Positions 31,216 through 58,530 of a DNA stretch of 64,000 nucleotides are shown here, in pieces. The notes under the pieces were generated by a model. The model saw only the letters and a program-made list of their open reading frames with translations. It was not told the origin of the DNA and did no database searches. The position numbers were made by a program, and so were the translations under genes. The number at the start of each line of letters is the position of its first letter. Positions within the stretch are counted from its first letter, which is position 1. Source of the stretch: a bacterium BMS3Abin14 (GTDB taxonomy: Bacteria > BMS3Abin14); the NCBI GenBank assembly GCA_002897695.1, contig BDTG01000028.1, forward strand, positions 7,329 to 71,328, in the 5' to 3' direction.

Positions 31216-33018
31216 TTGGATACGGGATCAGATGCACTGGACCAGCAGGGTGATTGGGAGCGAACGCACAACTGTGGAACCCTGAAAAAAGATAATATCG
31301 GGAATGAGGTCATCCTCATGGGTTGGGTCCTTCGCAGAAGGGATCACGGCGGGTTGATCTTCGTCGATCTGAGAGACCGGTGGGGCATAACCCAGGTAGT
31401 TTTCAACCCGGAGAGGGAACCTGAATCCCACGGGAAAGCTGAGCGCCTGAGATCCGAATACGTTATCGCCGTCAGGGGTGAGGTGTCTCCAAGACCCGAA
31501 GGCATGGGAAACCCTGGTCTGGTCACGGGAGCGATTGAGGTGCTGGTTGACGAGTTGAGGGTTCTCAACTCCAGTCTGACCCCCCCGTTTTCCCTTGACG
31601 AGCGTGAGGGTGGGGATGTCGCTGAAATCGTCCGCCTCAAGTACCGGTACCTGGCCCTGCGGCGGGACACCCTGAAAAACAATATGATACAGCGTTCCCT
31701 CTTGGCGAAATGGGTCAGGGACTATTTTTACGATGAGGGATTTCTCGAGATAGAGACACCCTTTCTCACAAAAAGCACCCCAGAGGGCGCCAGGGATTAT
31801 CTTGTGCCCAGCAGGGTTAGCCAAGGTAACTTCTACGCACTTCCACAGTCCCCACAGCTTTTCAAACAGATCTTGATGGTAGCCGGGTTCGACCGCTATT
31901 TCCAGATTGTACACTGTTTCAGGGACGAGGACCTGCGTGCGGACCGGCAGCCGGAGTTTACCCAGATCGACGTGGAGATGTCCTTTCCCACGGTTGACAC
32001 CCTGTTCGATATAATGGAGCGGATGATGTCCGGGGTCTTCCGGTTCGCCCTGGACCTGGACATAGCGGGACCCTTTCCACGACTGGGTTATGGGGAGTGC
32101 CTTGACAGGTTTGGACTGGACAGGCCGGACACAAGATTCGGGATGGAGCTGGTTGACCTGACGGAGATCCTTGGCTGTACCGAGGCGAGAGTGTTCTCCG
32201 AAACCGTGGCGGCCGGCGGTATTATCAGAGGGCTGACGGTTAAGGATGGGGGTGGAATGTCCCGCAGAGAGCTCGATGAGCTTACAGCCTATGTGGGGGT
32301 TTACGGGGCAAAAGGGCTGGCCTGGTTCAAGTATTCCGAGAATGGCTGGCAGTCTCCCCTGGCCAAGTTCATCGGTGAGGACGAAAAAGCGCGGGTGTCC
32401 CAAACGGCCATGTTTGAACCGGGCGACCTGCTTCTGGTAGTCGCGGGCGCCTCCGGCATGGTTAACGAGTCGTTGGGGCAGCTGCGGGTCCACCTCGGGA
32501 ACATGCTCGACCTCATACCTGCTGACCGCTACGATTTTCTCTGGGTTACCGATTTCCCCCTTTTCGAATACGACGAGAAGGCGGGCAGGTACAACTCCAT
32601 GCACCACCCGTTCACCTCCCCGGTGGAAGAAGACCTGCCCCTCCTCGAAACGGACCCCGGCCGGGTCAGGGCCAAGGCCTACGACATGGTCCTGAACGGG
32701 TCTGAGATCGGTGGCGGCAGCGTTCGTATTCACCGGCAAGACGTACAGAGCACCGTATTCAAGCACCTGAACATAGGACCTGATGAGGCAAGCGAAAAAT
32801 TCGGATTTCTCCTTGACGCGCTGCAGTACGGCGCCCCTCCTCACGGCGGCATCGCATTCGGTCTGGACCGCATTATGATGATACTGACCGGATCTGCCTC
32901 CATCAGGGACGTCATTCCTTTTCCCAAGACCCAGAAAGCCGCTTGTCTCATGACCGATGCGCCCAACCCTGTTGATCCAACCCAGCTTATGGAACTTGGA
33001 CTGAAGCTGCGCCGGTAA
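31216..33018 (+). CDS. aspS: aspartyl-tRNA synthetase
   Basis: OB fold followed by class II catalytic motifs (FRDEDLRADRQPEFTQ, GGGSVRIH, GLDRIMM). TTG start preceded by GGGAGG. Confidence 0.9.
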   Translation: MDTGSDALDQQGDWERTHNCGTLKKDNIGNEVILMGWVLRRRDHGGLIFVDLRDRWGITQVVFNPEREPESHGKAERLRSEYVIAVRGEVSPRPEGMGNPGLVTGAIEVLVDELRVLNSSLTPPFSLDEREGGDVAEIVRLKYRYLALRRDTLKNNMIQRSLLAKWVRDYFYDEGFLEIETPFLTKSTPEGARDYLVPSRVSQGNFYALPQSPQLFKQILMVAGFDRYFQIVHCFRDEDLRADRQPEFTQIDVEMSFPTVDTLFDIMERMMSGVFRFALDLDIAGPFPRLGYGECLDRFGLDRPDTRFGMELVDLTEILGCTEARVFSETVAAGGIIRGLTVKDGGGMSRRELDELTAYVGVYGAKGLAWFKYSENGWQSPLAKFIGEDEKARVSQTAMFEPGDLLLVVAGASGMVNESLGQLRVHLGNMLDLIPADRYDFLWVTDFPLFEYDEKAGRYNSMHHPFTSPVEEDLPLLETDPGRVRAKAYDMVLNGSEIGGGSVRIHRQDVQSTVFKHLNIGPDEASEKFGFLLDALQYGAPPHGGIAFGLDRIMMILTGSASIRDVIPFPKTQKAACLMTDAPNPVDPTQLMELGLKLRR

Positions 33019-33059
33019 AAATACACACTGACCCGGATGAACCCCACTACCTAAAGTTC

Positions 33060-33107
33060 TTGACACCTGAGGGCTACCCTTATATAGGTATACTGTATAC
33101 AGTATAC
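33060..33107 (+). promoter_or_regulatory. predicted sigma70 promoter (TTGACA -35) followed by triple GTATAC operator (GTATACtGTATACaGTATAC, 20-bp perfect palindrome) upstream of mdh
   Basis: Seen in sequence. The same TTGACA plus tandem GTATAC arrangement recurs upstream of sdhC at 55001-55047. Confidence 0.55.
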
Positions 33108-33240
33108 TGAAGTTGTGCCCATTAAATGATATCTTTCGTTTTCCGTGGAGTAAAAGGCCACGACTGGTTTTTTTGCGGCCTTATCAATAGGTAGTAGTGT
33201 GACAGTAGTGCAAAAAAATCGGCGTCTTGAACAGGTATAA

Positions 33241-34227
<987 letters not shown>

Positions 34228-34260
34228 TTTTTCCGGGGTTTCTTCTATCTAACTGCAGAT

Positions 34261-34305
34261 GGAGGGTCGTCTTCTACTTTCACGGAGGACCCTCCTTCTG
34301 TTTGT
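34261..34305 (+). terminator. hairpin (GGAGGGTC-N19-GACCCTCC) with a T-rich tail after mdh; possible partial terminator or attenuator
   Basis: 8-bp perfect stem seen in sequence. The tail TTCTGTTTGTG is only moderately U-rich. Confidence 0.35.
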
Positions 34306-34376
34306 GAACGCGAAATTCTACTTTTGGAAAAAGATGGAGACCTGTTCGGCGTGATTGGATGCCCGGAGGAAAAACC

Positions 34377-35216
34377 ATGAGAGAGATCGAGGCCCGGCAG
34401 ATAACCCGGGCCGTTAAAGAGCTTTGCATGAATGCGGCTTATCACCTGGGCGATGATGTGGTCGGGGCTATCAGGGAAGGTCTGGAAAAGGAGGCATCTC
34501 CCACCGGCAGGGATGTGTTGAACCAGCTTCTCGAGAATGCGGAGATAGCCTCGGCAGGGGAGTTCCCCCTTTGCCAGGATTGCGGCCTTGCGGTTATCTT
34601 CGTTGAACTTGGCCAGGATGTCCACGTGAGCGGCAGCGACCTCAACGATGCCATCCATGAAGGGGTCAGGCAGGGCTATGGGGAAGCCTATCTCCGAAAG
34701 AGCGTATGTCATCCCTTCACCCGTAAAAATACCGGAGATAACACGCCCTCCATCATCCACGTTAAGATTGTCCCTGGTGAAAAGATCAAGCTGACCATGG
34801 CCGCCAAGGGAGGGGGCAGTGAGAATATGAGCCGGGTCATGATGCTCAAACCTTCCGATGGGAAGGAAGGTATCATGGATTATGTTATCGGGCGGGTAAT
34901 AGAATCAGGCCCCAACCCCTGTCCTCCAACCATCGTCGGTGTTGGAATAGGGGGGACATACGAAAAGGCCGCTCTTATTGCCAAGGAGGCTCTCCTCCGC
35001 CCCGTCGGCCGACCAAGCCCTGACCCGGAACTGGCAGAGATGGAGAAAAAAATTCTCGATGCAGTGAATGGATCCGGCATCGGTCCGGCCGGGCTGGGGG
35101 GCAGGGTGACTTCATTTGCCGTCCACATCGAGATGAACCCCTGTCACATCGCCAGCCTTCCGGTGGCGGTTAATATCAACTGCCATTCCCACCGGCACAA
35201 GGAAACGGTCATCTAA
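34377..35216 (+). CDS. fumA: class I fumarate hydratase, alpha (N-terminal/Fe-S) subunit
   Basis: Fe-S hydro-lyase alpha-type sequence (...FPLCQDCGLAVIFVELGQ...). RBS GGAGG before ATG 34377. Confidence 0.85.
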   Translation: MREIEARQITRAVKELCMNAAYHLGDDVVGAIREGLEKEASPTGRDVLNQLLENAEIASAGEFPLCQDCGLAVIFVELGQDVHVSGSDLNDAIHEGVRQGYGEAYLRKSVCHPFTRKNTGDNTPSIIHVKIVPGEKIKLTMAAKGGGSENMSRVMMLKPSDGKEGIMDYVIGRVIESGPNPCPPTIVGVGIGGTYEKAALIAKEALLRPVGRPSPDPELAEMEKKILDAVNGSGIGPAGLGGRVTSFAVHIEMNPCHIASLPVAVNINCHSHRHKETVI

Positions 35217-35230
35217 GGGAGGTATTGATC

Positions 35231-35788
35231 ATGTCGGAACCTGTTCGGTTGACTCCCCCTCTGTCGGGGGAAGATGTTGAGTTTTTGAAAGCAGGTGACA
35301 GGGTGCTGATCTCCGGTACGATCTACACGGGGCGGGATGCCGCCCATAAGAGGCTTGTGGATCTGTTGGAGAAGGGTGATCCTCTTCCCCTGGAACTGGA
35401 GGGCCAGGTCATCTATTTTGTCGGTCCCTCTCCGAGCAGGCCTGGAAATCCCATCGGTTCTGCCGGCCCGACCACCAGTTACCGTATGGACGCCTATTCT
35501 CCTGTCCTCATAGAGAAGGGGCTGAAAGTAATGATAGGCAAGGGAGCGCGTTCACAGGAAGTTATTGATGCGATGGTACGCTATAAGGCGGTTTATCTTG
35601 CGGCGGTAGGCGGGGCAGCGGCCCTGATATCCCGAAGGATCGAGTCCTGTGAGGTCATCGCCTACGAGGACCTCGGCCCGGAGGCCATTCGAAAGCTGGA
35701 AGTCAGGGATTTTCCCGCTATCGTGGTAAACGACTGCGAGGGAAACGATCTTTACAGGCAGGGTGTGGAAGAGTACAAGACGGCGTAA
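35231..35788 (+). CDS. fumB: class I fumarate hydratase, beta (C-terminal) subunit
   Basis: Fe-S hydro-lyase beta-type ([19 protein letters not shown]...). Alternative TTG start at 35225. Confidence 0.85.
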
Positions 35789-35877
35789 TATTTTTATGGA
35801 AGGGGAAGGCTCGGTGCTACCCCCTATACAGCAGTCGGTCCCCCGGGTGGCGGGATCAGATAGCGGGAGGTCATTGC

Positions 35878-37047
35878 ATGAAGGTCCACGAATACCAGGC
35901 GAAACAGCTTCTTCGGGAATATGGCGTTCCGGTGCCGGACGGGGGGATGGGCAGAACCCCTGCGGAGGCCCGGAAGATAGCCGAAGAATTGGGCGGGAAA
36001 GTCGTTGTAAAGGCTCAGATCCATGCCGGGGGCCGCGGCAAGGCCGGCGGCGTTAAGTTGGTTTCAGGACCCGCGGAGGCCGAGAAGGTGGCTGGGGAGC
36101 TTATAGGCAAAACCCTGATAACCCACCAGACCGGACCCGGGGGGAAGGTTGTCAATCAGATCCTCATCGAGGGAGGGGTTGAGATCGCATCCGAGTTCTA
36201 CCTCGGCATGGCCATCGATCGCGCAACCGAGAGGGTCGCCATCATGGCGAGTACCGAGGGAGGGGTTGAGATCGAGAAAGTAGCGGCCGAAGCCCCTGAG
36301 AAGATCCTCAAGGAATTCGTGGACCCGGCCGTGGGATTGATGCCCTTTCAGGCCAGGAAGATTGCATTCAATCTGGGTTTGACCGGAAAGACTGCGTCTG
36401 CCGCGGCCTCCTTTGTCCTGAAGCTTTACAGACTGTTTATGGACAAGGATTGTTCACTGGCTGAGATCAATCCGCTCATCACCACTGCGACCGGCGAGGT
36501 GATTGCCCTTGACGCAAAGTTGAATTTTGACGACAATGCCCTTTTCCGGCACCCTGATATCGTTGAGCTTCGGGACCTTTCGGAGGAACAGCCGCAGGAG
36601 ACCGAAGCCTCGGAGTACGGGCTCTCCTATATAAAACTGGAGGGCAATGTGGGGTGTATGGTCAACGGTGCGGGCCTAGCCATGTCCACCATGGACATTA
36701 TCAAGCTTGCAGGCGGCGAGCCGGCGAATTTTCTGGATGTGGGCGGAGCGGCCAAGGAGGAATCCGTCACTAATGCCTTCAGGATCATTCTCTCCGATAA
36801 AAATGTTAAGGTTGTCCTCGTCAATATTTTCGGGGGCATCGTCCGTTGCGATATCGTGGCCCAGGGTGTGATCAATGCTGCGAAAAACCTGAACGTGACG
36901 GTCCCTGTCGTCGTCAGGCTCGAGGGCACGAATGCGAAGGAGGGGCTCAGCCTTATTGAAAAATCAGGGATGAAATTTATTACGGCCAAAGGCCTGAAGG
37001 CCGCTGCAGAGCAGGCGGTAGCTGCCGCAAAGAGCGGGGAGGTGTAG
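35878..37047 (+). CDS. sucC: succinyl-CoA synthetase beta subunit
   Basis: [12 protein letters not shown]... with ATP-grasp. Confidence 0.95.
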
Positions 37048-37048
37048 G

Positions 37049-37921
37049 ATGAGCATCCTGGTAAACAGCGATACGAGGGTTGTCGTTCAGGGAATCACGG
37101 GACACGAGGGTAGTTTCCACACAAGGCAGTGCGTAGCCTACGGGACCAAAGTGGTCGCCGGGGTGACGCCTGGAAAGGGCGGCCAGGACGTCGATGGCAT
37201 CCCTGTTTTCAACACGGTATCCCAGGCGGTAGAAAAGGAGGGCGCCGACGCGGCCCTGATTTTCGTTCCACCTGCATTTTGCGCCGACGCTATCCTTGAG
37301 GCGGCTTACGGGGGGGTCGATCTCGTTGTATGTATTACCGAGGGGATTCCCACTCTGGACATGGTCAAGGTGAAAAACGCACTTGGGGCTACGGGTGTGC
37401 GGATGATCGGGCCTAACTGTCCCGGTGTCATGACCCCGGGTCAGTGCAAGATGGGCATCATGCCCGGGTTTATCCATAAGGAGGGGCGCGTTGGCGTTAT
37501 CTCCAGGAGCGGGACCCTGACCTACGAGGCCGTCGGCCAGTTGACGGAGCTTGGCATCGGTCAGAGTACATGCATCGGCATTGGGGGAGACCCCATTATC
37601 GGCAGCACATTTGTTGATCTTTTACGGCTTTTCAACGATGATCCTGATACCGACGCCGTGGTGATGATCGGCGAGATCGGCGGCTCTGCGGAGGAGACCG
37701 CCGCAGACTTTATCAAAAAAGAGATGGGTAAACCGGTTGTGTCGTTCATCGCCGGACAGACTGCCCCTCCCGGGAAGCGGATGGGGCATGCCGGGGCTAT
37801 TATTGCTGGTGGAAAAGGTACTGCCGCCGAAAAGATTGTCAGCCTGGAGGCAGCCGGGGTTACCGTCAGCAGGAGCCCCTCGGAAATTGGCGCCAGGATA
37901 GCTGAAGTCCTTGGCGCCTGA
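37049..37921 (+). CDS. sucD: succinyl-CoA synthetase alpha subunit
   Basis: CoA-binding motif and phosphohistidine loop (...SRSGTLTYE...). Confidence 0.95.
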
Positions 37922-37934
37922 CAGGGAGGAAAGA

Positions 37935-38189
37935 ATGGCCAATATCGCTCCTGACGAGAAGACTGAGGTAGCGCAATATGGTGGGAGAAAAATCACCATA
38001 ATTCCCCGATATTGCAAGGGGTGCGAGATCTGTGTGAAGTTCTGCCCTGCTTCGGTCCTGGAAATGAAAGATTTCAAGGTTCACACAGCTCGCATTGAGG
38101 ACTGTACCGAATGCATGCTCTGTGAGGTGAGATGCCCCGATTTTGCCATTTTTGTAGATGAATCGGGTAAAAAGGGGAAGGCGAAATGA
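37935..38189 (+). CDS. korD: 2-oxoglutarate:ferredoxin oxidoreductase delta subunit (2x[4Fe-4S] ferredoxin)
   Basis: Two CxxCxxC(x)nCP motifs. RBS before ATG 37935; ORF 37911 also possible. Confidence 0.8.
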   Translation: MANIAPDEKTEVAQYGGRKITIIPRYCKGCEICVKFCPASVLEMKDFKVHTARIEDCTECMLCEVRCPDFAIFVDESGKKGKAK

Positions 38190-39319
38190 GCGGCAAGGAC
38201 GTATTTTTTCAAGGTAATGAAGCCTGTGCGCACGGTGCCCTTTATGCCGGCTGCCGTTTTTTCGCCGGCTATCCCATCACCCCATCAACCGAGGTAGCTG
38301 AATTGATGTCACGCTTCCTGCCGAAGCTTGGCGGGGCGTTTATCCAGATGGAGGATGAGATCGCCGCCATGGCGGCCACCATCGGGGGGTCCCTCGCAGG
38401 CAAAAAAAGCCTGACGGCTACCAGTGGTCCCGGTTTTTCCCTCAAACAGGAAAACATCGGGTTCGCATGCATAACGGAGATACCGTGTGTGATCCTGAAT
38501 GTCATGCGAGGCGGCCCCAGCACCGGGCTGCCCACCGGCCCCAGCCAGTCGGACGTCATGCAGGCCAGGTGGGGCACCCATGGGGATCATCCGGTCATCG
38601 CCTTAACCCCCGCCTCCGTTCAGGAGATCTTCACCGAAACGGTGAGGGCTTTCAACCTGGCCGAGAGGCTCAGGACCCCGGTTATCCTTCTCCTCGATGA
38701 GATTATCGGTCACATGAGGGAAAAGATCACTATTCCCCCCGAAGGGGAGCTTGAGATCTGGGACCGTCCCAGGCCAACGTGCAAACCTGAGGAGTATAAA
38801 CCTTACGACATCAGTGAAGGGTTGATTCCGCCCATGGCCGATTTCGGCTCCGGCTACCGCTGGCACACCACCGGCCTGAACCATGATGAAACAGGATTTC
38901 CAACCAACAAGCCCGAATTGGTGGAACCGGAAGCTGAGAGGCTTATGAACAAGATCACCCGCAATCTGGACATCATAGAAAAGTATGACTACCACGAGGC
39001 CAGGGGGGCTAAGGTCGGGATGATGGCCTTCGGTTCCACATCCCGGTCCGCGCGCGCGGCCATCAGAACCCTGGCCGCAGAGGGGATTCCTGTGGAGTTC
39101 CTCAGGCCCGTCACCCTTTGGCCCTTTCCCACGAAGATCATCGAGAAGATGGCCGAAAATGTTGATGCCATAATTGTCCCTGAGATGAATCTCGGCCAGA
39201 TGTCTGAGGAGGTCCAGAGGTGCGCCTGCGGCAAGGCCAGGGTCGTTGGGATTAACAGGGTGGACGGTGATCCGATAACACCCGCGCAGATCATTGACAA
39301 GATCAGGGAGGTGTCGTGA
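38186..39319 (+). CDS. korA: 2-oxoglutarate:ferredoxin oxidoreductase alpha subunit
   Basis: Pyruvate/2-oxoacid:Fd oxidoreductase alpha domain (GYPITPSTE...). Confidence 0.9.
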   Translation: MSGKDVFFQGNEACAHGALYAGCRFFAGYPITPSTEVAELMSRFLPKLGGAFIQMEDEIAAMAATIGGSLAGKKSLTATSGPGFSLKQENIGFACITEIPCVILNVMRGGPSTGLPTGPSQSDVMQARWGTHGDHPVIALTPASVQEIFTETVRAFNLAERLRTPVILLLDEIIGHMREKITIPPEGELEIWDRPRPTCKPEEYKPYDISEGLIPPMADFGSGYRWHTTGLNHDETGFPTNKPELVEPEAERLMNKITRNLDIIEKYDYHEARGAKVGMMAFGSTSRSARAAIRTLAAEGIPVEFLRPVTLWPFPTKIIEKMAENVDAIIVPEMNLGQMSEEVQRCACGKARVVGINRVDGDPITPAQIIDKIREVS

Positions 39320-40137
39320 TGGCATTTAACTACGCGCAATATACCCGGCCGGGCAAGCTTCCCCACATCTGGTGTCCGGGATGCGCCCATGGAATCGTTA
39401 TGAAATCGCTTATCAGGGCCATCGATCGGGTTGGGCTGGATAAGGACAACACCGTTATCGTATCAGGGATAGGCTGCGCTTCAAGGCTTCCCGGCTATGT
39501 CGACTTCAACACTCTGCACACCACCCATGGAAGAGGCCTTGGATTTGCCACGGGAATAAAGATGGCCAATCCGAAGCTTGATGTTATTGTCGTGGGTGGC
39601 GACGGGGATTCCCTCGCCATCGGCGGGAATCATTTTATACACGCCTGCCGAAGGAACATCAACATCACTCTGGTGGTTTTCAACAACTTTATCTACGGCA
39701 TGACAGGAGGTCAATTCTCGCCAACGACCCCCCATGGCAGGCTTGCAAGCACCACACCTTACGGCAATCCTGATTACTCTTTCGACGTGGTGGAGTTGGC
39801 ATCGGGCGCCGGGGCGAGCTTTGTGGGGCGCCATACCGCGTATCATGCCATTCCACTGGAGAGGATGATTGCCGATGCCATCTCCCATAAGGGATTTTCG
39901 GTGGTGGATGCCCTGTGCACGTGCCCGACGACCTACGGACGAAGGAACAAACTGGGAACGGCTGTGGATATGATCGAGTGGTTTAAAAATAATACCGTGG
40001 GCATCAAGGCGGCTGGAAAGCTTCCTCCCGAAAAGGTCGAGGGAAAGATCCTCACCGGCGTGTTTAAAAATATTGAAAAGCCCGAATATTGTATGGAATA
40101 CGAAAACATCAAGGCAAAGGCAGGGAACAGGCCCTGA
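39316..40137 (+). CDS. korB: 2-oxoglutarate:ferredoxin oxidoreductase beta subunit (TPP-binding)
   Basis: TPP motif GDGD...N region (VVGGDGDSLAIGGNHF). Confidence 0.9.
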   Translation: MMAFNYAQYTRPGKLPHIWCPGCAHGIVMKSLIRAIDRVGLDKDNTVIVSGIGCASRLPGYVDFNTLHTTHGRGLGFATGIKMANPKLDVIVVGGDGDSLAIGGNHFIHACRRNINITLVVFNNFIYGMTGGQFSPTTPHGRLASTTPYGNPDYSFDVVELASGAGASFVGRHTAYHAIPLERMIADAISHKGFSVVDALCTCPTTYGRRNKLGTAVDMIEWFKNNTVGIKAAGKLPPEKVEGKILTGVFKNIEKPEYCMEYENIKAKAGNRP

Positions 40138-40152
40138 CCAGGAGGTAATATC

Positions 40153-40689
40153 ATGGCCGACAGGTTCGAGGTAAGACTCAGCGGCGCTGGTGGACAGGGA
40201 TTGATCCTTGGCGGTGTCATCCTTGCGGAGGCCGCATCCCTTTTTGAAGGTAAAAACGCTGTTCAAACCCAGTCCTACGGACCCGAAGCCAGGGGCGGCG
40301 CCAGTAAATCTGAGGTCATCCTCTCGGAAGGAGAGGTCGATTATCCCAAGGCCACGGAGATTGATCTCCTTCTATGCCTTACGCAGGAAGCCTGTGATAA
40401 ATACACCGTCGATCTGAAAGACAATGGTGTTCTTATCACCGATTCCCGCATGGTCCAGGATATTCCCGAAGGGAAATTCAAGGTTTATCAGCTGCCCATA
40501 ATCGATACCGCCAAGGATAAGGTCGGGAAGGTTTTTGTCGCCAACATCGTGGCGCTTGGAGCCATAACCCGCCTGATCGAGCAGGTATCCTTCGATTCGG
40601 TTGAAAAGGCCGTTCTCAACCGGGTGCCGAATGGAACCGAGGACCTGAACAAAAGAGCCCTGAAACTGGGATACGATCTGGTTAATTAA
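40153..40689 (+). CDS. korC: 2-oxoglutarate:ferredoxin oxidoreductase gamma subunit
   Basis: ...LSGAGGQGLILGG... gamma-subunit fold. Confidence 0.85.
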   Translation: MADRFEVRLSGAGGQGLILGGVILAEAASLFEGKNAVQTQSYGPEARGGASKSEVILSEGEVDYPKATEIDLLLCLTQEACDKYTVDLKDNGVLITDSRMVQDIPEGKFKVYQLPIIDTAKDKVGKVFVANIVALGAITRLIEQVSFDSVEKAVLNRVPNGTEDLNKRALKLGYDLVN

Positions 40690-40719
40690 TCAGGCCTGCG
40701 ACGGGGATCAGACGGAGAG

Positions 40720-41510
40720 TTACCTGAACCTTATGTTGTGCTTTTGAACGGCCTTAACCAGATATTCTATCTCGCCGGGATGGAGGATTCCCTTCTTGAC
40801 AAAGAATTCCCCTATGGGCCGCTGGAGCCAACGCTGAAAGCCAAGGACCGCGGAACGCTGGTAGGGAGTCATGTACCCCAGGCGAAGCGCTGAGCCGCCT
40901 ATCCTTTCCCCGAACACTCTTTCCGCTGAGATGATGTGAAGCTCCTCTGAATTAAGAAACTTCCACGTGGCGGCAATATGGCCGAAAGAGGGACGCTGAC
41001 GTCTCTGCCAGGTAATGGCCTTGATAAGGGTTCTCCAGGATATGATCCCGGAGTAGTAAAGGTACTGGCCCAGCAGAAGCCTGTTCTCGGGAACCAGACC
41101 CTGCCAGAAATGGTCATGGGTTTTCCCGCCCGTTTCTGATGCCCTGTTTTCGGCCGGGTCTTCGCGGGGGGTGTTGCGGGGCTGAGGATTCGTCCGGTGA
41201 ACAGTCGTGGATAGGTCCTCCGATGACAGGAAAGCCAGAAGGCTGGAGTAGGCCTGAGTTACTGCTATGAAATGTTCGGCCATCTCATTCTCATCCTTGC
41301 CCTGAATTCTGGCCCTGTCCGGATGAAGCTCCAGAGCCTTTCTCCTGAAGGTGACCTTCAGGCCTGAAGGCCCCAGCGTTCGCAGAAACTCATCGGTCAC
41401 CTCGACATCGGCGCCGAAAAGCACCCTGAATGCCGAAGTGATCTCCCGGGTATTTAACGCGGTATTCAAGGACCAGAACCTCCCTAAGTCTCCAGCTACA
41501 AACAGAAGAA
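40720..41510 (-). CDS. J-domain (DnaJ-like, HPD motif) protein with uncharacterised C-terminal domain; start uncertain
   Basis: KVTFRRKALELHPDRA J-domain core. The upstream part of ORF 40720..41919 looks non-coding (repeat-rich), so a later TTG/GTG start is assumed. Confidence 0.5.
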
Positions 41511-41587
41511 TCGCTTGCAGGCACAAAAGCGACAACCGCAACTTTACAGTGACGCTATTCTGGGTAATAAACGTGCATGTGTCAAGT

Positions 41588-41768
41588 GTCTTGAACGTGG
41601 TCCAATGTCCAATGTCCAACGGGGAAAAGCCGGATGTGGTGACACGGAGACACGGAGAAAAACGAAGAGGGGGGATAAGAGCAGGCGGTGGGCTCGATTT
41701 AACAGGGATGAAGGGGATGAAAACAGGCGATGGGCAGTAAGAGCAAGTTTGTAGTTTGAGGCTTGAGG
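41588..41768. repeat. left imperfect inverted repeat of the island (core GTCTTGAACGTGgtccaATGTCCAATGTCCAACGGGGAAAAG plus second block GCAAGTTTGtAGTTTGAGG)
   Basis: The reverse complement of 49249-49315 aligns (AACGTG...ATGTCCAAyGTCCAACGGGGAA..GCAAGTTTGAGGTTTGAGG). Local micro-tandem repeats (gacacggag x2, atcgaaga x3). Confidence 0.75.
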
Positions 41769-41867
41769 TTAAAATCTGGCACTGAAACCTTGGTGAAACA
41801 GACATGGGAGCAAGGGAGTAAGGGCGTATCGAAGCATCGAAGAATCGAAGAATCTCAAACTCGCCTA

Positions 41868-42360
41868 TATTATGTGACAATTGTCTTGTCCGGTTCGACG
41901 TGGTATGCCTCGATCCCAAAAACGACTTTTAAAAAGGGAGACTTTTGGTGTCGGGCAAGCCCATTAATGTCATTATCGGGGACGGGGAAAATCCCTCGTC
42001 TTTAGGTGAAGGGAAGGATGTGATAACATAATTATGTCAGATATCGATTGAACGTGAGATAGAGATCCTGTCGGGTAAAGTTGGCAGCGACCATGTTCAC
42101 GTTTTTATATCCTGTCGTCCGAGTCATAATATCAGTGTATCAGTCAGGTAGTGCAATGGTTGAAGGGAATCAGTTTCCGGGTGCTTCTTTAAGGAGTTTC
42201 CCCACTTGCGCAAGCAATTTTGGGGTCGTCATTTTTGGGCTCGCGGCTATCTTGCTGTTTCCTCCGGTACCATCACAGATGAGATGATCCAGGAGTATAT
42301 TGAAGAGCAAGAAGGGGAGCCGATTCATGATGACAGTCAATTTCCAGTTGACAACCCTTA
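41868..42360 (+). pseudogene. IS200/IS605-family TnpA (Y1 HuH transposase) remnant in three frames with an in-frame TGA
   Basis: Fragments YIM*QLSCPVRR..., ...EIEILSGKVGSDHVHVFISCRPSHNISV... (HuH) and ...QFWGRHFWARGYLAVSSGTITDEMIQEYIEEQ... are colinear with IS200 TnpA but frameshifted. Confidence 0.75.
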
Positions 42361-42391
42361 AACCCATCGCCTTTTAGGCGAGGAGTATCCA

Positions 42392-42637
42392 GTGGAGTCG
42401 AGGCTGCGGACAAACATGCCTCCAGTGAAAGCGAGCTTTCTTGCTATGACTCAAAACCATGCGAAAGATAACAATCAAATGCAGGCCTCGTTTGCGACTT
42501 TACTGAGTGGGGCGGCTGAGGCCCTTGCAAATTATCTTGACAGGCTATTGCCTTCACTTCTTGATAACTGGTGGAAAAATGCTGTGGTGGACAAGCTGTC
42601 TTTTCAGCAACACCGCGGATCAAACAGAAAGGAATAG
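42392..42637 (+). pseudogene. HEPN-related ORF fragment (frame 2), partial duplicate of the downstream HEPN N-terminus
   Basis: LLPSLLDNWWKNAVVDKLS parallels LLRVLDQNWYQISMKMNLS in the next frame. Confidence 0.35.
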
Positions 42638-43041
42638 TCCACCTCTCATCATTGGATCTTGCTGCCTTGCTTCGGGTGTTGGATCAGAACTGGTACCAGA
42701 TTTCAATGAAGATGAATCTATCCCCGGAAGTTCGCCATTTTGTTAAAGAAATGCAGACAGTTCGCAATCGGTGGGCGCACGCCGGCAGTGAAGGATTTCC
42801 GGTCGACGATGTATACCGTGACTTGGACACCCTGCAACGTTTTGCCACAGTCATTGAGGCGGACGAAGCTCTGCTTCAAGAAGTACGGTGGAGGGTGAGA
42901 CGCAGACATACTACGCATCGCAACTCAAAGCTGAAGACCGGCAGGAAGCCGAGTCCCGATTCTTGCCGTGCGAGGAATTTCATTCCTACCTCACCGCGCT
43001 GCAAATTCGATATCCGGGACTCTCCACGCTCTATTCCTTGA
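42571..43041 (+). pseudogene. Swt1/sacsin-type HEPN domain ORF (R-N-x3-H motif RNRWAH), frameshifted into the SNF2 helicase gene
   Basis: HEPN Rx4-6H motif and helical pattern. The last 50 codons are Arg-rich out-of-frame translation of the helicase 5' region. Frame 0 has a stop at 42855. Confidence 0.5.
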
Positions 43042-45851
43042 ATGCCGCACGAGCCGATTTTATCCCCTATCAGTTCCGGCCCGTCTTGCGGTTTATCAGA
43101 TCAGACCGTCCTCGATTGCTGGTCGCCGATGGCGTGGGCGTCGGCAAGACAATCGAAGCGGGTCTGATTCTCCGAGAACTGCAGGCACGACGAGATATAC
43201 GCTCGATCCTCATCATATGCCCTCGCCCTCTTGTTACCGAGCGTAAGTGGCAGATTGAGATGAAGCGGTTTGAAGAGCGTTTTATTCATCTTGACGGTGG
43301 GACGCTCAGGTATTGCATAAACGAAATGGATTTGGAAGGAACCTGGCCAGAGCAGCACCAGCGAGTCATCATCCCATATTCCTTATTCGACGAAGTCCTT
43401 CTCTATGGCTCGGGCTCTGACGGCAAACGAAAGTGCAAAAAGGGGTTGTTGGATTTGGACCCACCCCCTCGCTTCGATCTGGTTATCGTGGATGAGGCGC
43501 ACCACATCCGGAATCAGGATACGTTCAGCCACAAAGCCGTGCGGTTTTTCTGTGACCATGCGGAAGCCGTGGTCTTTCTGACAGCGACGCCGATTCAACT
43601 TGGCAGCCATGACCTCTTTGTTTTGCTGAACACCCTCCGCCCCGACCTTATTATCGACCAAGAGAGCTTTGAGCACATGTCAGAGCCGAATCCGTTTATA
43701 AACCAAGCGGTCGCATTGGCGCGTGCCCAGGAACCGGACTGGACGACCCAGGCCAATGAAGCTCTCGATCAGGCTGCTGGGACACCCTGGGGACAATCGA
43801 TTCTTAAACATAATCCTGAATTCAACCGCATACATACTCTAATTTCGAAAGGCAAAATCGGATTGGAGGAGCGTGTACAGCTGATTACCGACCTCGAGGC
43901 GTTACATACCTTCTCCGGGATAATCAATCGAACGCGACGCCGCGATATCGGGGAGTTCACGATCCGAAATCCGGAAACCGTGGTTGTTGAATTTACCCCC
44001 CCCCAAAAAGAGCTTCATGACGAACTGATTCAAGTCCAGGCGGAGATATTCAGCAGACTTCATGGGGATGTTAACGTCAAGTTCATGATGACAACAATTA
44101 GACGTCAGGCTGCGAGCTGCCTTTTCGGCCTCGCCCCTTTCCTTGACGAAATTCTCAACCGGCATCTTGATGAATTATCATGGGAGGAGGCCGACAACAC
44201 CGAACCAGTTCCACAAAGCGACATCATCGATAGCATCGAATCACGAATTAAAACCATCCTTGAGAAGGCGCGTGCTCTCGATCCGAATGACCCCAAGCTT
44301 GACGCTCTCCGTAAAGTCATAAGAGACAAGCAGGGTCTGCCAAACAACAAAGTGATGCTTTTTAGCAGTTTTCGGCACACGCTTCACTATCTCTATGAAC
44401 ATCTGAACGCAGATAGTTTTCGGGTTGGAATGATTCATGGCGGCACACCTGACGAGGACCGTGTCGATCTTCGTAACCGCTTTGAGATGCAGCGAGATCA
44501 GGATAACGGTCTCGACGTTCTTCTGTTTTCCGAGATCGGTTGTGAAGGCTTGGACTACCAGTTCTGTGATTGCATTGTGAACTATGACCTGCCCTGGAAT
44601 CCGATGCGGATTGAGCAGAGAATAGGACGAATTGACCGCTGGGGGCAGAAAAGTGAAAAGGTGGCTATCTTCAATATGATTACGCCAGGGACTGTGGACG
44701 CGGACATCTATGAACGCTGTCTGGTTCGCATAGGAGTGTTCAATAATGCCCTGGGCGGTAGTGAAGAGATACTTGGTGAAATCAGTCGAGAAATTCGTAA
44801 TATTGCGGATAACTTCTCTCTGAGTGAAGCTGAGCGCGGAGAGCAGTTCCAACAATTAGCGGACAATAAGATCAGGCTAATACAAGAACAGGATGACCTC
44901 GAGCAGAAACAACTTGAGCTATTCGGCATCCGTCTTCCTCAAGACCAAATGAAGCGGGAAATCGAACAGGCGTCGAGTTTCTGGCTGTCTCCCTCTTCAA
45001 TACGAAGGCTCATAACGATTTACCTTCAGCGGGTTTGCGGAAAGGAACAGGAGTTCATACTCGGCGAGAAAGCACTGAAAACGCTTCGGCTTTCGCAAGA
45101 ATCAAGGAGTAGTGTACTACGGGATTTTCAAAGACTACCCCGCCAGAACACGTCCGCGTATCGAGAATGGGAAAACTGGTTGAAGGGTGGCAACCCTCAT
45201 CTTCTAATGACCTTCGAGTCCGAGTGCGCTTCGCACCACCCTGAGGCCGTTTTCATTATGCCCCTCCATCCCTTGGTAAAACAGGCGGCCATGGCATTCG
45301 ATGCCAGAAAGCGCGTATTTACAGCCCTGAAGGTTAACAGCAATGATGTCCCGAAAGGCAGATACGAATTCGCCATCTTCCAATGGCAGTTCCATGGCGT
45401 TAGGGAGGATTTGGTCTTGCGGCCTGTTGCTTCCTCGGACGTGGTGACCGAACACCTTCCAGGTCTTGTTGAGAAAGCGGAAGGAGATCCCACTGGAAGG
45501 ATCGACGTCGCAGATCCCGCCATTTGGGATGGTCTGGATGCGCAGCATCACAGGCTGTGGTCTGAAGCACGCAAAAACCATCAACGAAAGACCCAGGAAC
45601 TGGCTGAATACCGGAGGGAGAGTTTGACAACGAGCCACAGAGCCCGGATCTCACTTCTTGAAGAACAACTGGGTCAAGCGAGTAATGACAAAATCAGGCG
45701 GATGCGCCAAGCTCAAATTGCAGCGGCTGAAGCGGATTACGCGCGTCGCATTCAAGAATTGGATATTGCTATGGAACGGGCCGATATTACCGCCCAACCG
45801 GTGGCGTATGGGGTAATCCACATCGATGGAGGGTTGTCGGATGCCGAGTGA
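42888..45851 (+). CDS. SNF2/Rad54-family superfamily-2 helicase (DEAH), about 350-aa C-terminal region of unknown function
   Basis: Motif I DGVGVGKT, II VIVDEAHHIRN, III FLTATPIQ, V LFSEIGCEGLDY, VI QRIGRIDRWGQ. GTG start; possibly originally fused to the upstream HEPN. Confidence 0.85.
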   Translation: MEGETQTYYASQLKAEDRQEAESRFLPCEEFHSYLTALQIRYPGLSTLYSLNAARADFIPYQFRPVLRFIRSDRPRLLVADGVGVGKTIEAGLILRELQARRDIRSILIICPRPLVTERKWQIEMKRFEERFIHLDGGTLRYCINEMDLEGTWPEQHQRVIIPYSLFDEVLLYGSGSDGKRKCKKGLLDLDPPPRFDLVIVDEAHHIRNQDTFSHKAVRFFCDHAEAVVFLTATPIQLGSHDLFVLLNTLRPDLIIDQESFEHMSEPNPFINQAVALARAQEPDWTTQANEALDQAAGTPWGQSILKHNPEFNRIHTLISKGKIGLEERVQLITDLEALHTFSGIINRTRRRDIGEFTIRNPETVVVEFTPPQKELHDELIQVQAEIFSRLHGDVNVKFMMTTIRRQAASCLFGLAPFLDEILNRHLDELSWEEADNTEPVPQSDIIDSIESRIKTILEKARALDPNDPKLDALRKVIRDKQGLPNNKVMLFSSFRHTLHYLYEHLNADSFRVGMIHGGTPDEDRVDLRNRFEMQRDQDNGLDVLLFSEIGCEGLDYQFCDCIVNYDLPWNPMRIEQRIGRIDRWGQKSEKVAIFNMITPGTVDADIYERCLVRIGVFNNALGGSEEILGEISREIRNIADNFSLSEAERGEQFQQLADNKIRLIQEQDDLEQKQLELFGIRLPQDQMKREIEQASSFWLSPSSIRRLITIYLQRVCGKEQEFILGEKALKTLRLSQESRSSVLRDFQRLPRQNTSAYREWENWLKGGNPHLLMTFESECASHHPEAVFIMPLHPLVKQAAMAFDARKRVFTALKVNSNDVPKGRYEFAIFQWQFHGVREDLVLRPVASSDVVTEHLPGLVEKAEGDPTGRIDVADPAIWDGLDAQHHRLWSEARKNHQRKTQELAEYRRESLTTSHRARISLLEEQLGQASNDKIRRMRQAQIAAAEADYARRIQELDIAMERADITAQPVAYGVIHIDGGLSDAE

Positions 45852-48800: not shown

Positions 48801-48912
48801 AAATTCGGACGACGCTGAAGTCCCGCTGCAGCTTGGAGAGCTGGACACAAGTGTCCGGTTTGTCGAGACCCATTATCACGATATACAGACTATTCTCGAG
48901 GAGCGAAAATAA
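45841..48912 (+). CDS. sacsin/Hsp90-like GHKL ATPase domain protein (1028 aa) with C-terminal CxxC-N35-CxxC zinc ribbon
   Basis: N-box IYELLQNAEDA and G2-box IGKFGIGFKSVYAF at the N-terminus. Long mixed middle region. C-terminal CQICQN...CPLCAAMY. Start overlaps the helicase stop (ATGccgagTGA). Confidence 0.8.
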   Translation: MPSDYEQICKDNIRRRGEEFDDIGQLISEQLHSDRTHFIYELLQNAEDALGRRKRNNPESELPTNVKFLLYKDRMEFRHFGENFNIEDVKGISNVLKGTKSEDKTQIGKFGIGFKSVYAFTSTPEIHSGAEHFIIERYIRPRSADKFPQIASGETTFVFPFNHKDLSKEQAFQLIEEKLKKIGSRILLFLGNITEIKWKIEDQDEGLYLKESKQQGQFAQKVTVIGQHGNENEEEEWLVFRRQIEAGNSSFESFVEVAFRLKNDVKLEREIIQKIESSPLIVYFPTKLETRFGFFVHGPYDTTASRSDIENNEWNRRLIIETADLLTEIVLPWLKENRLLTPSFLEALPIRLDVFPQDSLFRPIYEKVRGALRNQDFLPTTDGNYVAGKRAVLARAEDLVNLMSSEQLSFLLSKSIKLEWLTTDITENKKDIHRYLVGWKPGYYDTGEETESLIVAEIRPQDLIEKLTSDFLEAQSITWLLKFYAFCEKRPTLIDKLKNKPVVRLEEGPYVIPFKQDGSPNAYLPPENDTEFPVVSRKISKDEKALEFLKKLGLTKPDAVAEVIEHVLPKYRQSNPDISDDEHRQDIKKILKAYETDSQKKKRRLIEQLQATEFIFTETPGIETTSFRRPIDAYFWSNELEAYFSGSNTVGFVRPEFYNQSVLAVFEDLGVTDKIRIRCKSKNGSVDYMQLEYKNWHRRGLRGFDPDIQIDGIQYAIKNPSGEKSKIIWNEVAVKYSHCIKGKIIRSSRQDFSLNASVYEEEELTSNFGRLLMDTPWLPDKQDNFHKPAELKLDDLPESFVRDEKPVNQLGMKKDVVAKLAEEAGISLDNIEKAKKIAEASPEVKEQIDLLLSNSNEKQPEFPRKASSNVDRRRKKTTEKYHKAPKKKYEKKPYSKKVTENTIDPKIWLRETYTNKERQMICQICQNEMPFKKKDSQYYFEAVELLNDFDREMEEFYIALCPLCAAMYNEFVKHDKGAMEPLKNALINSDDAEVPLQLGELDTSVRFVETHYHDIQTILEERK

Positions 48913-49248
48913 GTTCGCTCGGTGGCCATTGCGAGCAATTCTCTACATGCGTAGGCCTAATTTTACTGCCAGATATCAAGCGAAGACTGAGGCAATTGTT
49001 CGGGCCGGAACGGCTTCAAGACAGGGTGAGTCATGATGTTTGAAGCCGCGTCGGGCCTATGCAGCTCCCCCCAAATGAAAGATCAAGAGGCTCGGCGGAA
49101 TCTGGAACCCGAGACGAAAGCTTCGAGGAAGCCCTTGTGTCAGAGACAGTTAAGGCAATGGGACGTGTATGGGAGCATTGAGGTAACGAAGTGTTATCTA
49201 TGTCCTGAACTAAAAGTGTTGCCCCTGTCCTGATTGCTCCCCCGCATC

Positions 49249-49315
49249 CCTCAAACCTCAAACTTGCCCTTCCCCGTTGGACGTTGGACATTCTTTCTCA
49301 CGTTGAACGTTGGAC
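49249..49315. repeat. right imperfect inverted repeat of the island
   Basis: Reverse complement matches 41588-41629 and 41743-41768. Confidence 0.75.
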
Positions 49316-50052: not shown

Positions 50053-50054
50053 GA

Positions 50055-54968: not shown

Positions 54969-55000
54969 CCGGCCGACCCCAAGCGCCCCGTCCGGGATAG

Positions 55001-55047
55001 TTGACATCTTGCATCTAAAGTCCTATGTTCCCGTGTATACTGTATAC
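55001..55047 (+). promoter_or_regulatory. predicted sigma70 promoter TTGACA-17-TATGTT with tandem GTATACtGTATAC operator at +1 of the sdhCAB operon
   Basis: Seen in sequence. Same arrangement as upstream of mdh (33060-33107). A second TATAAT lies at 55153. Confidence 0.55.
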
Positions 55048-55172: not shown

Positions 55173-55838
55173 ATGTCAATGCTCACTAGTTCCGTCGGGA
55201 GAAAGATGTTCATGGCGGTGAGTGGCCTGTTCATGCTCCTGTTCGTCGTTGCGCACCTGCTGGGAAACTCCACTATTTTTGTGGGCGCCGGCTGGTTGAA
55301 CGCATACGCGGAGCATCTTCGCAGTCTGCCCATCCTGGTGTGGCCGGAACGAATCATCATGTTCGTTCTGCTATGTCTGCATATCTATTTCGGAATCACC
55401 CTGACGCTGGAAAACTGGGGCGCAAAAGGGCGAAAATACGCTGTAACCAGGAGGCTCAAGGCCACCTTTGCCGGCAGGACCATGATCTGGACAGGGCTTG
55501 TTCTCCTGGCCTTCATCATCTACCACCTGCTCCAGTTCACATTCCGCGTCACCCCGGATATCGTCCAGACACTGGATGCCGAAGGGCGTTATGATGTCTT
55601 TAACATGGTCGTCAGCAGCCTTCGGGTAGCGTCCAATTCCGCTATATATCTCGTCGCCGTAGTTGCCCTGTTCCTCCATCTCTACCATGGCGCCGAGAGT
55701 TTTTTGCAGACCCTGGGGCTCAATAACGATCGGACACGGCCGAGGATTAACGCGGTGGGCATCGCGCTATCCGTGCTGTTTCTCGTTGGGTACGGCGCGA
55801 TCCCGGTCCTCATCCTGGCCGGCATCCTGGCCAGATAG
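55173..55838 (+). CDS. sdhC: succinate dehydrogenase/fumarate reductase cytochrome b subunit (5-TM dihaem, B. subtilis/Wolinella type)
   Basis: Five hydrophobic helices with conserved His ligands. Operon with sdhA/B. Confidence 0.8.
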
Positions 55839-55849
55839 GGGGCGTGACA

Positions 55850-57763
55850 ATGATACTTGACGGAAAGAGTCCGACAGGACCCATTGAAGAAACATGGGAT
55901 AAGTACCGCAACGATATGAAGCCGGTCAACCCGACCAACAAACGGAATTTCAAGGTTCTCATCGTCGGCACCGGCCTTGCCGGCGCTTCGTCCGCCGCAA
56001 CCCTTGCCGGGCTTGGGTACAACGTGGAGTCGTTCTGCTACCAGGACAGCCCCCGGCGCGCCCATTCCATAGCCGCCCAGGGCGGGATCAACGCCGCCAA
56101 GAACTACCCCAACGATGCCGACAGCGTCTGGCGTCTCTTCTACGATACGGTTAAAGGCGGTGACTTCCGGTCCCGCGAGGCCGATGTGTGGCGCCTGGCC
56201 CAGGTGAGCAACAGCATCATCGACCAGTGCGTCGCCCAGGGCATCCCTTTCGCCCGTGACTACGCCGGTTACCTCGACAACCGTTCGTTCGGGGGGGCTC
56301 AGGTTTCCAGGACATTTTTCGCCAGGGGGCAGACGGGACAGCAGCTCCTGCTCGGGGCCTACTCGGCCATGTCCCTCCAGATCAAGGCGGGAGGGGTCAG
56401 GATATTCCCCCGGACAGAGATGCAGGACCTCATACTGGTGGACGGTGAGGCTAAGGGGATAACCGTTCGTAATCTTCTCACAGGCGAGATCAGCAGCCAT
56501 GTCGGTGACGCTGTTCTCCTGTGTACCGGTGGGTATGTCAACGTGTTCGACCTGTCCACCAATGCCATGGGTTCCAGCGTTTCGGCCATCTGGAAAGCAT
56601 ACCGGAAAGGCGCCTTTTTGGCCAATCCCTGTTACACCCAGATCCATCCCACCTGTATCCCGCAGTCGGGCGACTACCAGTCGAAGCTGACGCTCATGTC
56701 CGAGTCTCTCCGCAACGACGGCAGATGCTGGGTTCCCAAAAAACACGGGGAAAATCGTCCTCCCGACCAGATTCCCGAGGAGGATCGCGACTACTATCTC
56801 GAGAGGAAATACCCTGCTTTCGGGAACCTCGCGCCCCGGGACATTGCCTCCCGTGCAGCCAAGGAACAGTGCGATGACGGGCGTGGTGTAGGGCCCACCG
56901 GCCGCGGTGTTTATCTGGACTTCCGGGATCCCATCAAACGTCTCGGTGAGGATTTGATTCGTGAAAGGTATGGGAACCTGTTCGAAATGTACGAACAGAT
57001 AACCGGCGAGGACGGCTACAAAGTCCCCATGCGCATTTATCCCGCACCTCACTATTCCATGGGCGGGCTGTGGGTGGACTACAGCCTCATGAGCAACATC
57101 CCCGGTCTGTTCGTCCTGGGCGAGGCCAATTTCTCCGTGCACGGCGCGAACAGGCTTGGCGCCAGTGCCCTCATGCAGGGTCTGGCCGACGGCTACTTCA
57201 TTATCCCTTATACCCTGGCAAACTACCTTTCCGGGGTAACACCGGGCAGGCTCAGTGCCGACAGTCCGGAAGTCAAAGCCTCTATCGAGGATGTCAAATC
57301 GAACATCCGGAAACTCCTGTCCGTCGATGGAAAGCGCACCGCGGCCGAGTTCAGGCGCGATCTTCACCACGTCATGTGGGAGGACGCGGGCATGACGCGC
57401 AGCAAGGAAAGCCTCACGGATGCGATCCATAAGATCCCCGCCATCCGCAAGGAGTTCTGGGAGAATGTGAAAGTGCCCGGGACCGGGACAGAGATCAACC
57501 AGGAGTTGGAGAAAGCCGGCCGGGCGGTGGATTTTCTGGAGTTTGCCGAACTGCTCGCTCGCGATGCCCTACACCGGGACGAATCGTGCGGAGGCCACTT
57601 CCGTGTTGAGCACCAGACGGAGGATGGCGAGGCGATACGTGACGACGAGAACTTTACCTATTCGGCGGCCTGGGAGTTCAAGGGGGTTGACAAGGAGCCT
57701 GAGCTCCATAAGGAACCCCTGAAATTCGAAAAAGTTCACCTCGCGGTAAGGAGCTACAAATAA
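55850..57763 (+). CDS. sdhA: succinate dehydrogenase/fumarate reductase flavoprotein subunit
   Basis: FAD-binding [12 protein letters not shown], covalent FAD His region [10 protein letters not shown], catalytic R/H residues. GTG 55844 is an alternative start. Confidence 0.95.
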
Positions 57764-58530
57764 TGAGCGGAAATGCTGAGCAAAAGACGATGACATTGAA
57801 GCTGGTCGTCTGGCGTCAGAAGGAACCAAAGGACGCCGGCCGCTTTGAGACGTACCTTGCCAACGGGATCACTACCCACCATTCCTTCCTGGAAATGCTG
57901 GACGTGGTGAACCGGGAACTCATCCTCGCAGGGAAAGAACCCATAGTATTCGACCATGACTGCCGTGAGGGAATATGCGGAGCATGTTCCATGGTAATCA
58001 ACGGGGTTCCCCATGGCGGGCAGGAAAGGACCACCACCTGTCAACTGCACATGCGGAATTTCAAGGACGGGGACACGATCTACATCGAGCCCTGGCGGGC
58101 CAAGGCGTTTCCCATTCGCAAGGATCTGATGGTGGACCGCAGCGCCTTTGATAAAATAATTCAGGAGGGGGGGTATATCTCCGTGCACGCCGGTTCTCCG
58201 GTGGACGCAAACGCCATTCTGATCGCCAAGCAGGCCGCTGATTATTCCATGGACGCCGCCGAATGCATCGGTTGCGGGGCCTGCGTTGCCGCCTGTCCCA
58301 ACGGATCCGCCATGCTGTTTACCAGCGCCAAGGTTTCCCAGTTTGCCGCTTTGCCCCAGGGTCAGGTGGAGGCAAAGGAACGCGTCCAGAAGATGCTGGA
58401 TGCGATGAAGGACTGCGGGTTTGGCAACTGTACCAATCATTACGAGTGCCAGGCGGCGTGTCCAAAGGGGATTGACGTGAAGTTCATCGCGAAACTCAAC
58501 AGGGAGTATCTGAAAGCCGTGTTCTGCTAG
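57763..58530 (+). CDS. sdhB: succinate dehydrogenase/fumarate reductase iron-sulfur subunit
   Basis: 2Fe-2S (CREGICGAC) and 4Fe-4S/3Fe-4S Cys clusters ([20 protein letters not shown]). Confidence 0.95.

Follow-up and report, generated by a model that had tools for sequence, protein, structure and literature searches.

The closest described system is that of HgtR in Geobacter sulfurreducens (Ueki and Lovley, Nucleic Acids Res 2010; PMC2817479). HgtR (GSU3364) is a protein of 62 aa with a predicted ribbon-helix-helix (RHH) fold; hgtR is hydrogen-induced from a sigma-54 promoter and required for growth on hydrogen, during which HgtR represses the genes of the TCA cycle and respiration (PMC2817479). 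Geobacter HgtR has no sensor domain, and its amount is set by the sigma-54-dependent transcription of hgtR, which is probably controlled via an enhancer-binding protein with an Fe-hydrogenase-like domain. The operator was footprinted at gltA as 5'-TTGTATACAGTATACTAA-3'. This 18-mer, which is given in the Methods as the string for Geobacter genome searches and also lies within the cloning primer GTAAAATTGTATACAGTATACTA, reads GTATAC-A-GTATAC, and the dyad-symmetric repressor footprint at gltA was at +11 to +23 (PMC2817479). Similar sites were reported upstream of acnB, icd (icd-mdh), oorD (oorDABC, 2-oxoglutarate:ferredoxin oxidoreductase), ato and frdC (frdCAB), as well as atpG, nuoA, sfrB, nad, iolE and gntR, and fumA was among the identified genes. 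These sites lie 3' of the start site, over the start site, or over the -35/-10 elements. [quoted passage not shown] Coordinated repression of TCA operons on energy or redox supply, as proposed below, is also known for ArcA of Escherichia coli and for CcpC and CcpA of Bacillus subtilis (PMC2817479), but these regulators belong to unrelated protein families (response regulator, LysR and LacI, respectively) and have unrelated operators.

Here, we analyzed a stretch of 64 kb (positions 7,329 to 71,328 of contig BDTG01000028.1, hereafter the window) in which two operons of central carbon metabolism, mdh-fumAB-sucCD-korDABC and sdhCAB, are preceded by tandem arrays of the hexamer GTATAC (Table 1). 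We consider that these arrays are operators for an HgtR-family RHH repressor, with a probability of roughly 0.8. This is a known kind of operator, of the HgtR type, in a lineage without an earlier report of HgtR.

The SdhC of the window was identical (100%) to proteins encoded by 'bacterium BMS3Abin14' and by the MAG GCA_011040875.1. The MAG called 'bacterium BMS3Abin14' is the apparent namesake of BMS3Abin14, a GTDB candidate phylum known under this name in the literature from 12 genomes of hydrothermal and sub-seafloor sulphide settings. Reductive-TCA genes have been reported in this phylum (2025 study; published survey of mangrove-sediment MAGs). The Mdh of the window was found in marine metagenomes, and its homologues formed a discrete group at 80–94% identity, followed by proteins of at most 75% identity in unrelated phyla. 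The rpoN gene (sigma-54) was located immediately upstream of the window, in a 10-kb upstream extension, and the window starts with a cluster of hpf, PTS-EIIA, hprK, rapZ and mannose-type PTS genes (window 1-6000 and L140:8471-9922 for the two together). Several sigma-54-dependent response regulators are encoded in the window (e.g., 52364-53734).

Table 1. Promoters, putative operators, leaders and operons of the window, with the corresponding leader elements of relatives.
Feature	Position	Strand	Basis
mdh -35 hexamer TTGACA	33060..33065	+	sequence; invariant in window, L137, L138, L139, L142
mdh TATA-rich -10 region TATATAGG	33081..33088	+	sequence; conserved box in relatives
mdh three-heptad putative HgtR-type operator, GTATAC-T-GTATAC-A-GTATAC = GTATACtGTATACaGTATAC	33088..33107	.	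sequence, motif search
mdh 5' leader, ~180 nt	33108..33288	+	folds, alignment with relatives
mdh-fumA-fumB-sucC-sucD-korD-korA-korB-korC, putatively regulated operon	33289..40689	+	NCBIfam matches
sdhC sigma-70-type promoter TTGACA-17 nt-TATGTT	55001..55029	+	promoter scan 10/12
sdhC two-heptad putative HgtR-type operator, GTATAC-T-GTATAC = GTATACtGTATAC	55035..55047	.	sequence, motif search
sdhC-sdhA-sdhB, b558-type succinate dehydrogenase / fumarate reductase, putatively regulated operon	55173..58530	+	NCBIfam matches
mdh leader element, window	33108-33175
mdh leader element, L137	L137:9640-9750
mdh leader element, L138	L138:9553-9680
mdh leader element, L139	L139:9673-9800
mdh leader element, L142	L142:2365-2495
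Shine-Dalgarno-like box of the sdhC leader, window	55056-55068
Shine-Dalgarno-like box of the sdhC leader, L010 (also in the L008, L137 and L139 sdhC leaders)	L010:1178-1190

An earlier note on this DNA, made from its letters alone, had placed promoters and palindromic GTATAC arrays upstream of both operons and had named their genes. The coordinates of the mdh -35 hexamer and array and of the sdhC promoter and array were reproduced, and the gene calls were confirmed by NCBIfam matches. The sdhC promoter (TTGACA at 55001-55006, 17 bp, TATGTT at 55024-55029) scored 10/12 in the promoter scan, with a shuffle mean of 0.1, and its array begins 5 nt further 3'. The mdh operon lies 3' of aspS, which ends at 33018. 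The TATA-rich -10 claimed for mdh was present as a box that is conserved in relatives, but it was non-canonical: it can be read as TATATA (33081-33086, with a 15-nt spacer) or as TATAGG (33083-33088, with a 17-nt spacer), and the strict consensus scan called no + strand promoter at mdh. The transcription starts at both promoters are predictions. The mdh array is a perfect 20-bp palindrome with its hexamers in 7-bp phase, abuts the -10 and covers the predicted start. The sdhC array corresponds to predicted +1 to +13, within the 15-bp palindrome TGTATACTGTATACA.

The arrays of the window resembled the published operator in sequence, in position and in the genes that follow. The identity to the Geobacter gltA 18-mer was 16/18 at mdh and 15/18 (on either strand) at sdhC, and it reached 17/18 in the relative L138; the GTATAC hexamers, the 7-bp register and the dyad symmetry were all shared. 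Both arrays overlap or directly follow a sigma-70-type promoter or its predicted start, at or just 3' of the promoter as in Geobacter. The genes behind them (mdh, fumAB, sucCD, korDABC and sdhCAB) are central metabolism genes on the published list or akin to it: malate dehydrogenase and fumarase are found in both, korDABC corresponds to oorDABC (2-oxoglutarate:ferredoxin oxidoreductase), and sdhCAB corresponds to frdCAB (succinate dehydrogenase/fumarate reductase). The two systems differ in host, which here is the BMS3Abin14 candidate-phylum lineage, and in operon structure, since mdh-fumAB-sucCD-korDABC is one operon here (followed directly by sdhCAB in some relatives), whereas icd-mdh, oorDABC and frdCAB are separate in Geobacter. 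The number of heptads also differs, with three at mdh and two at Geobacter gltA, the one published sequence available as text.

The motif GTATACNGTATAC with at most one mismatch was found three times in the 64-kb window, against 0.02 matches expected, and zero shuffles reached three. All three matches fell at the mdh and sdhC sites, and no further site of at least 10/12 occurred anywhere else in the window. With three mismatches the motif was at chance level (8 observed, 6.5 expected). Single copies of GTATAC numbered 12, compared with 3.4 expected, and five of the 12 were within the arrays.

The mdh promoter was compared in five lineages with Mdh proteins 80–100% identical (the window, L137, L138, L139 and L142); P0284, with an Mdh of 73% identity, was left out. 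The three-heptad array was kept in all five, with 16–18 of the 18 hexamer positions matching (four of the five lineages had 17 or 18). L138 (complete genome CP070682.1; Mdh 85%) had the same array as the window and, like the window, the box TATATAG. This box was also present in L137 (Mdh 87%), where the array read GTATAC-A-ATATAC-A-GTATAC; in L142 (Mdh 80%) the box was TATATAC and the array GTATAC-T-GTATAT-T-GTATAC; in L139 (Mdh 83%) they were TATACAT and GCATAC-T-GTATAC-A-GTATGC. Thus, the outer hexamers of L139 carried mirror-image changes (GCATAC...GTATGC), which preserve the perfect 20-bp palindrome. The changes in the middle hexamer of L137 and L142 were uncompensated, and the hexamer register was retained. 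TTGACA, the TATA box and the array persisted in the five lineages, while the sequence diverged in the spacer from TTGACA to the box and around the array.

Conservation at sdhC was less complete. The array was exact in L010 and L011 (SdhC 90% identical), and the promoter elements of L010 were identical to those of the window. In L008 (SdhC 70% identical) it was degenerate (10/12; GGACACAGTATAC), and it was absent from L139, which has its own sdhC promoter. The phylogenetic footprint that the earlier note had proposed as a check therefore held in full for mdh, but only in part for sdhC. The note had also named occurrence at many unrelated positions as an outcome that would speak against the idea; in ~172 kb of lineage DNA, all matches of at least 11/12 were at mdh or sdhC promoters. 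As a control, no array was found in 0.92 Mb flanking hgtR-like genes (120 public genome contigs among the matches listed, nearly all labelled Geobacteraceae or Desulfuromonadaceae).

A further element had been described as common to both promoters. CTAAAGT does occur in both regions, at 33051-33057, 5' of the mdh -35, and at 55015-55021, but the latter copy is inside the -35/-10 spacer of sdhC and not 5' of the promoter. Its position thus differed between the two sites; a shared 7-mer appeared in 16% of shuffles, and CTAAAGT was absent from the orthologous mdh promoters. The link is due to chance, and the element was rejected.

The gene order of the mdh operon in the window was also found in L137 and L139. 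In these two genomes sdhCAB is located directly 3' of korC (L137, 16811-17540; L139, 16893-17726), while ~14.5 kb separate them in the window (40690-55000). This indicated that the ~14.5 kb are an insertion relative to those genomes. In L137, sdhCAB follows korC directly and has no promoter of its own, and therefore is presumably driven from the mdh promoter and dependent on its three-heptad site. In the species of the window, where sdhCAB is separated, it is preceded by its own promoter, which carries the same operator.

The 14.5-kb stretch looks like an inserted island with defence-like genes that split an ancestral operon. It contains an unannotated minus-strand ORF of 399 aa, an SNF2 helicase (42888-45851) with sub-threshold similarity to DISARM DrmD, and an ORF of 1028 aa (45826-48912) in a low-GC stretch (GC 0.39 over 46–48 kb). 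A DUF4390 protein, a histidine kinase, a sigma-54 response regulator and an M29-peptidase-like gene are also encoded there. In L138, the mdh operon is interrupted after a truncated sucC by a formate-dehydrogenase-like cluster. A match to the Moco (molybdenum/tungsten cofactor) riboswitch, just at the gathering score (36.3 vs. 36 bits), was located upstream of a 1030-aa ORF of this cluster (L138:17680-17792, minus strand).

The mdh 5' leaders of the relatives (~330–450 nt) share a conserved element of ~125 nt just 3' of the operator. Its parts follow in the order CAGGCCT..CCGACCTGG..CCCCCCTCCGC, a variable hairpin with apparently compensatory changes, GGGAAGGCCGGTTCGAAGGGGG, and a terminator-like GC hairpin with a run of T6-7. 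In the window the leader is short and the element degenerate; a hairpin and a run of T7 (at 33168) are located near 33139-33174. The element could be an attenuator or a riboswitch-like leader. Rfam gave no match at gathering score in the window and none in 33000-33300 at E ≤ 1; over the loci of the relatives it gave nothing relevant, with sub-threshold 6C and Moco matches at E ~0.4. In the sdhC leader, a Shine-Dalgarno-like box, AAGGAGGTGG (GAGGAGGAGGG in the window), lies ~100–130 nt upstream of the sdhC start codon, and it was conserved in all relatives, even in those without their own sdhC promoter. A conserved upstream ORF in this leader was considered and dropped by eye, because neither start codons nor peptides were conserved.

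The regulator was searched for on the basis of the Geobacter protein. The hgtR primer of Ueki and Lovley (2010) led to a metagenome contig encoding a 62-aa protein, MGKMRENPRYNVISMRISDEERDRLQAIMEATHKSVSDIMREAMELFSVQLEQSQSTDQKAA; the scan gave the Geobacter-type gene only. This protein matched Pfam RHH_1 at the gathering score. Its structural model (pLDDT 82) showed an extended N-terminus followed by two helices, i.e., a strand-helix-helix layout; the best fold matches were RHH antitoxin domains, with weak statistics, and no significant match was found among PDB sequences. Homologues formed 970 clusters at 90% identity, some of them named 'hydrogen-dependent growth transcriptional repressor'. 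The best 120 of the 970 were 67–98% identical, and the organism-named clusters among these 120 were of Geobacter, Desulfuromonas or Trichlorobacter type, and one bore only the label '[bacterium]'. Two segments were nearly invariant, MGRMRENPRYNVISMR at the N-terminus and KSVSDIMREAM in the centre. When representatives at 50% identity were searched with a profile, 165 clusters were obtained at E ≤ 1e-10, many of which kept PRYNV(I/V)S(M/L)R, within the strand NPRYNV(I/V)S(M/L)R, indicating that the HgtR family is wider than the canonical Geobacter-type group.

Neither tblastn nor two profile HMMs detected an HgtR-like ORF in the 64-kb window or in the related loci (~110 kb), and no RHH gene was present in the 10 kb upstream of the window. 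A scan of public genomes for the coding pattern NPRYNV[IV]SMR gave at least 120 matches; those listed belonged to Geobacter- or Desulfuromonas-type genomes or odd bins, and none to the BMS3Abin14 lineage. Likewise, neither the unnamed HgtR clusters that were looked up nor 20 representatives from the 50%-identity search could be connected with BMS3Abin14 or its relatives. In the literature search, HgtR was discussed for Geobacter only, and no report concerned the phylum BMS3Abin14. From the operators, we infer that the organism of this lineage encodes an HgtR-family protein.

Several Geobacter- or Desulfuromonas-type genomes carried two or three HgtR-like genes (L053 and L082; L089, L121 and L124; L059 and L060; L067 and L127; L079 and L109). 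The divergent short paralogues in those genomes (e.g., MDKSTRHNPRYNVISMRISEEERKRLDDIAARCKMNVSDIMRVAFENYTTTIH) retain the same beta-strand, and therefore may compete for the same operators. In L012, the HgtR homologue was located 3' of the gene for a sigma-54 activator that has an Fe-hydrogenase-like domain, as described for Geobacter (PMC2817479).

The proposed mechanism rests on the architecture of the arrays. Short repeats are read via a beta-ribbon by small RHH dimers; examples are the omega repressor (plasmid pSM19035), MetJ (which reads met-boxes), Arc and CopG. The omega repressor recognizes 7-bp heptads, each bound by one dimer, and its cooperative binding requires two heptads or more; this is the same register as that of GTATACW. 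The heptad sequence of these repressors is another one, they control plasmid copy number, partition or methionine genes, and they have no detectable sequence relationship with HgtR beyond the fold. The Geobacter-type HgtR has a predicted RHH fold, and the arrays consist of two and three heptads. By analogy, each GTATAC(W) heptad would be a small palindromic subsite, presumably read by one RHH dimer through its N-terminal beta-ribbon, and two or three heptads in the 7-bp register would allow cooperative binding of neighbouring dimers. The mdh array begins at the edge of the -10 and the sdhC array at the predicted +1, so that a bound repressor would block initiation, either at open-complex formation or at promoter escape, and mdh-fumAB-sucCD-korDABC and sdhCAB would be shut off together. 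Binding to the motif and repression through it come from Geobacter data (PMC2817479); the evidence in this lineage consists of sequence, position and conservation.

Three other explanations for the arrays were considered. That the arrays arose as chance repeats or were left behind by a mobile or repetitive element, and do not regulate anything, has practically no probability: GTATAC is a short AT-rich palindrome whose single copies are somewhat commoner than expected, but nothing specific points that way, and the reading is excluded by the statistics given above and by conservation, as both sites are at promoters of functionally linked operons and the array was conserved in five lineages despite diverging flanks, with no further copies in ~172 kb. 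It is also very unlikely that the palindromes work as RNA, that is, as a 5'-terminal hairpin stabilizing the mRNA or modulating translation. The perfect 20-bp and 15-bp palindromes would fold if transcribed, the mirror-image changes of L139 would keep an RNA stem as well, and the leaders are long and structured, as are the long 5' UTRs mentioned for TCA genes by the Geobacter authors (PMC2817479). However, the predicted starts are inside the arrays, so that at least part of the first hexamer would be untranscribed; the middle-hexamer changes of L137 and L142 were uncompensated, with the register kept; and in Geobacter the same sequence was protected by a purified protein and behaved as a repressor site in lacZ fusions (PMC2817479). 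The RNA reading is disfavoured for these reasons.

The arrays could instead be operators read in this phylum by an unrelated transcription factor, such as a GntR/FadR-type dimer, for which the motif was converged upon or inherited; this has a low probability. It is conceivable in that searches of the window and of the related loci did not yield the regulator, and the organism-named HgtR homologues among the matches listed came from the Geobacter/Desulfuromonas group, while the window belongs to a different candidate phylum. GntR-type sites are single inverted repeats for one winged-helix dimer, often with GT-N-AC core palindromes and usually near a GntR gene; the B. subtilis GntR operator contains GTATAC, and the arrays share with such operators the palindromic GTATAC core and an association with the regulation of organic-acid metabolism. 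In Geobacter, GSU3370, a member of the GntR family, bound the gltA promoter fragment as well, and its pattern was a different one (PMC2817479). Nevertheless, the similarity to the HgtR site extends beyond the core to the phase, to W as the spacer base and to the bases on the flanks, up to 17/18, and the target genes coincide with the HgtR regulon. Two or three tandem units in a 7-bp register are what is typically seen for RHH proteins, but not for winged-helix dimers. GntR-type genes were seen neither beside the operons nor among the annotated ORFs of the window, and this, together with the tandem 7-bp phase, spoke against a GntR-family operator. The extent of the match and the tandem 7-bp architecture make an unrelated factor in general less likely.

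The HgtR-type operator thus remains the preferred reading, and the idea that one common repressor governs both TCA operons was supported by the footprinted Geobacter operator, by the shared target genes and by conservation in five lineages. The further suggestion of a factor dedicated to the TCA cycle did not stand, since Geobacter HgtR is an already known global regulator that also acts on nuo, atp and sfr. There is some chance, though a rather small one, that the heptad switch acts differently from that in Geobacter: it may set the timing or direction of the branch (autotrophic reductive vs. oxidative), its signal may be something other than hydrogen, or its reader may be a protein outside the HgtR orthologues. 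Repression by hydrogen may follow a different physiological logic if the pathway is reductive in this lineage. In some relatives, the operon encodes the whole branch from oxaloacetate to 2-oxoglutarate as one unit. Such a different role, if true, would together with the conserved, unclassified leader RNA and its terminator directly 3' of the operator mean that carbon fixation is controlled in two layers in a phylum without a cultured member.

No new regulatory principle is revealed by the HgtR-type operators. They extend the HgtR operator beyond the Geobacter group, the sole place where it is described in the searchable literature, and the motif GTATACWGTATAC can serve for regulon prediction across the phylum. 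With three heptads at one site and two at the other, the promoters lend themselves to a natural test of whether RHH proteins bind cooperatively. A specific and testable type of regulator is thereby assigned, at the strength given above, to a central carbon operon of an uncultured lineage of the deep sea and subsurface.
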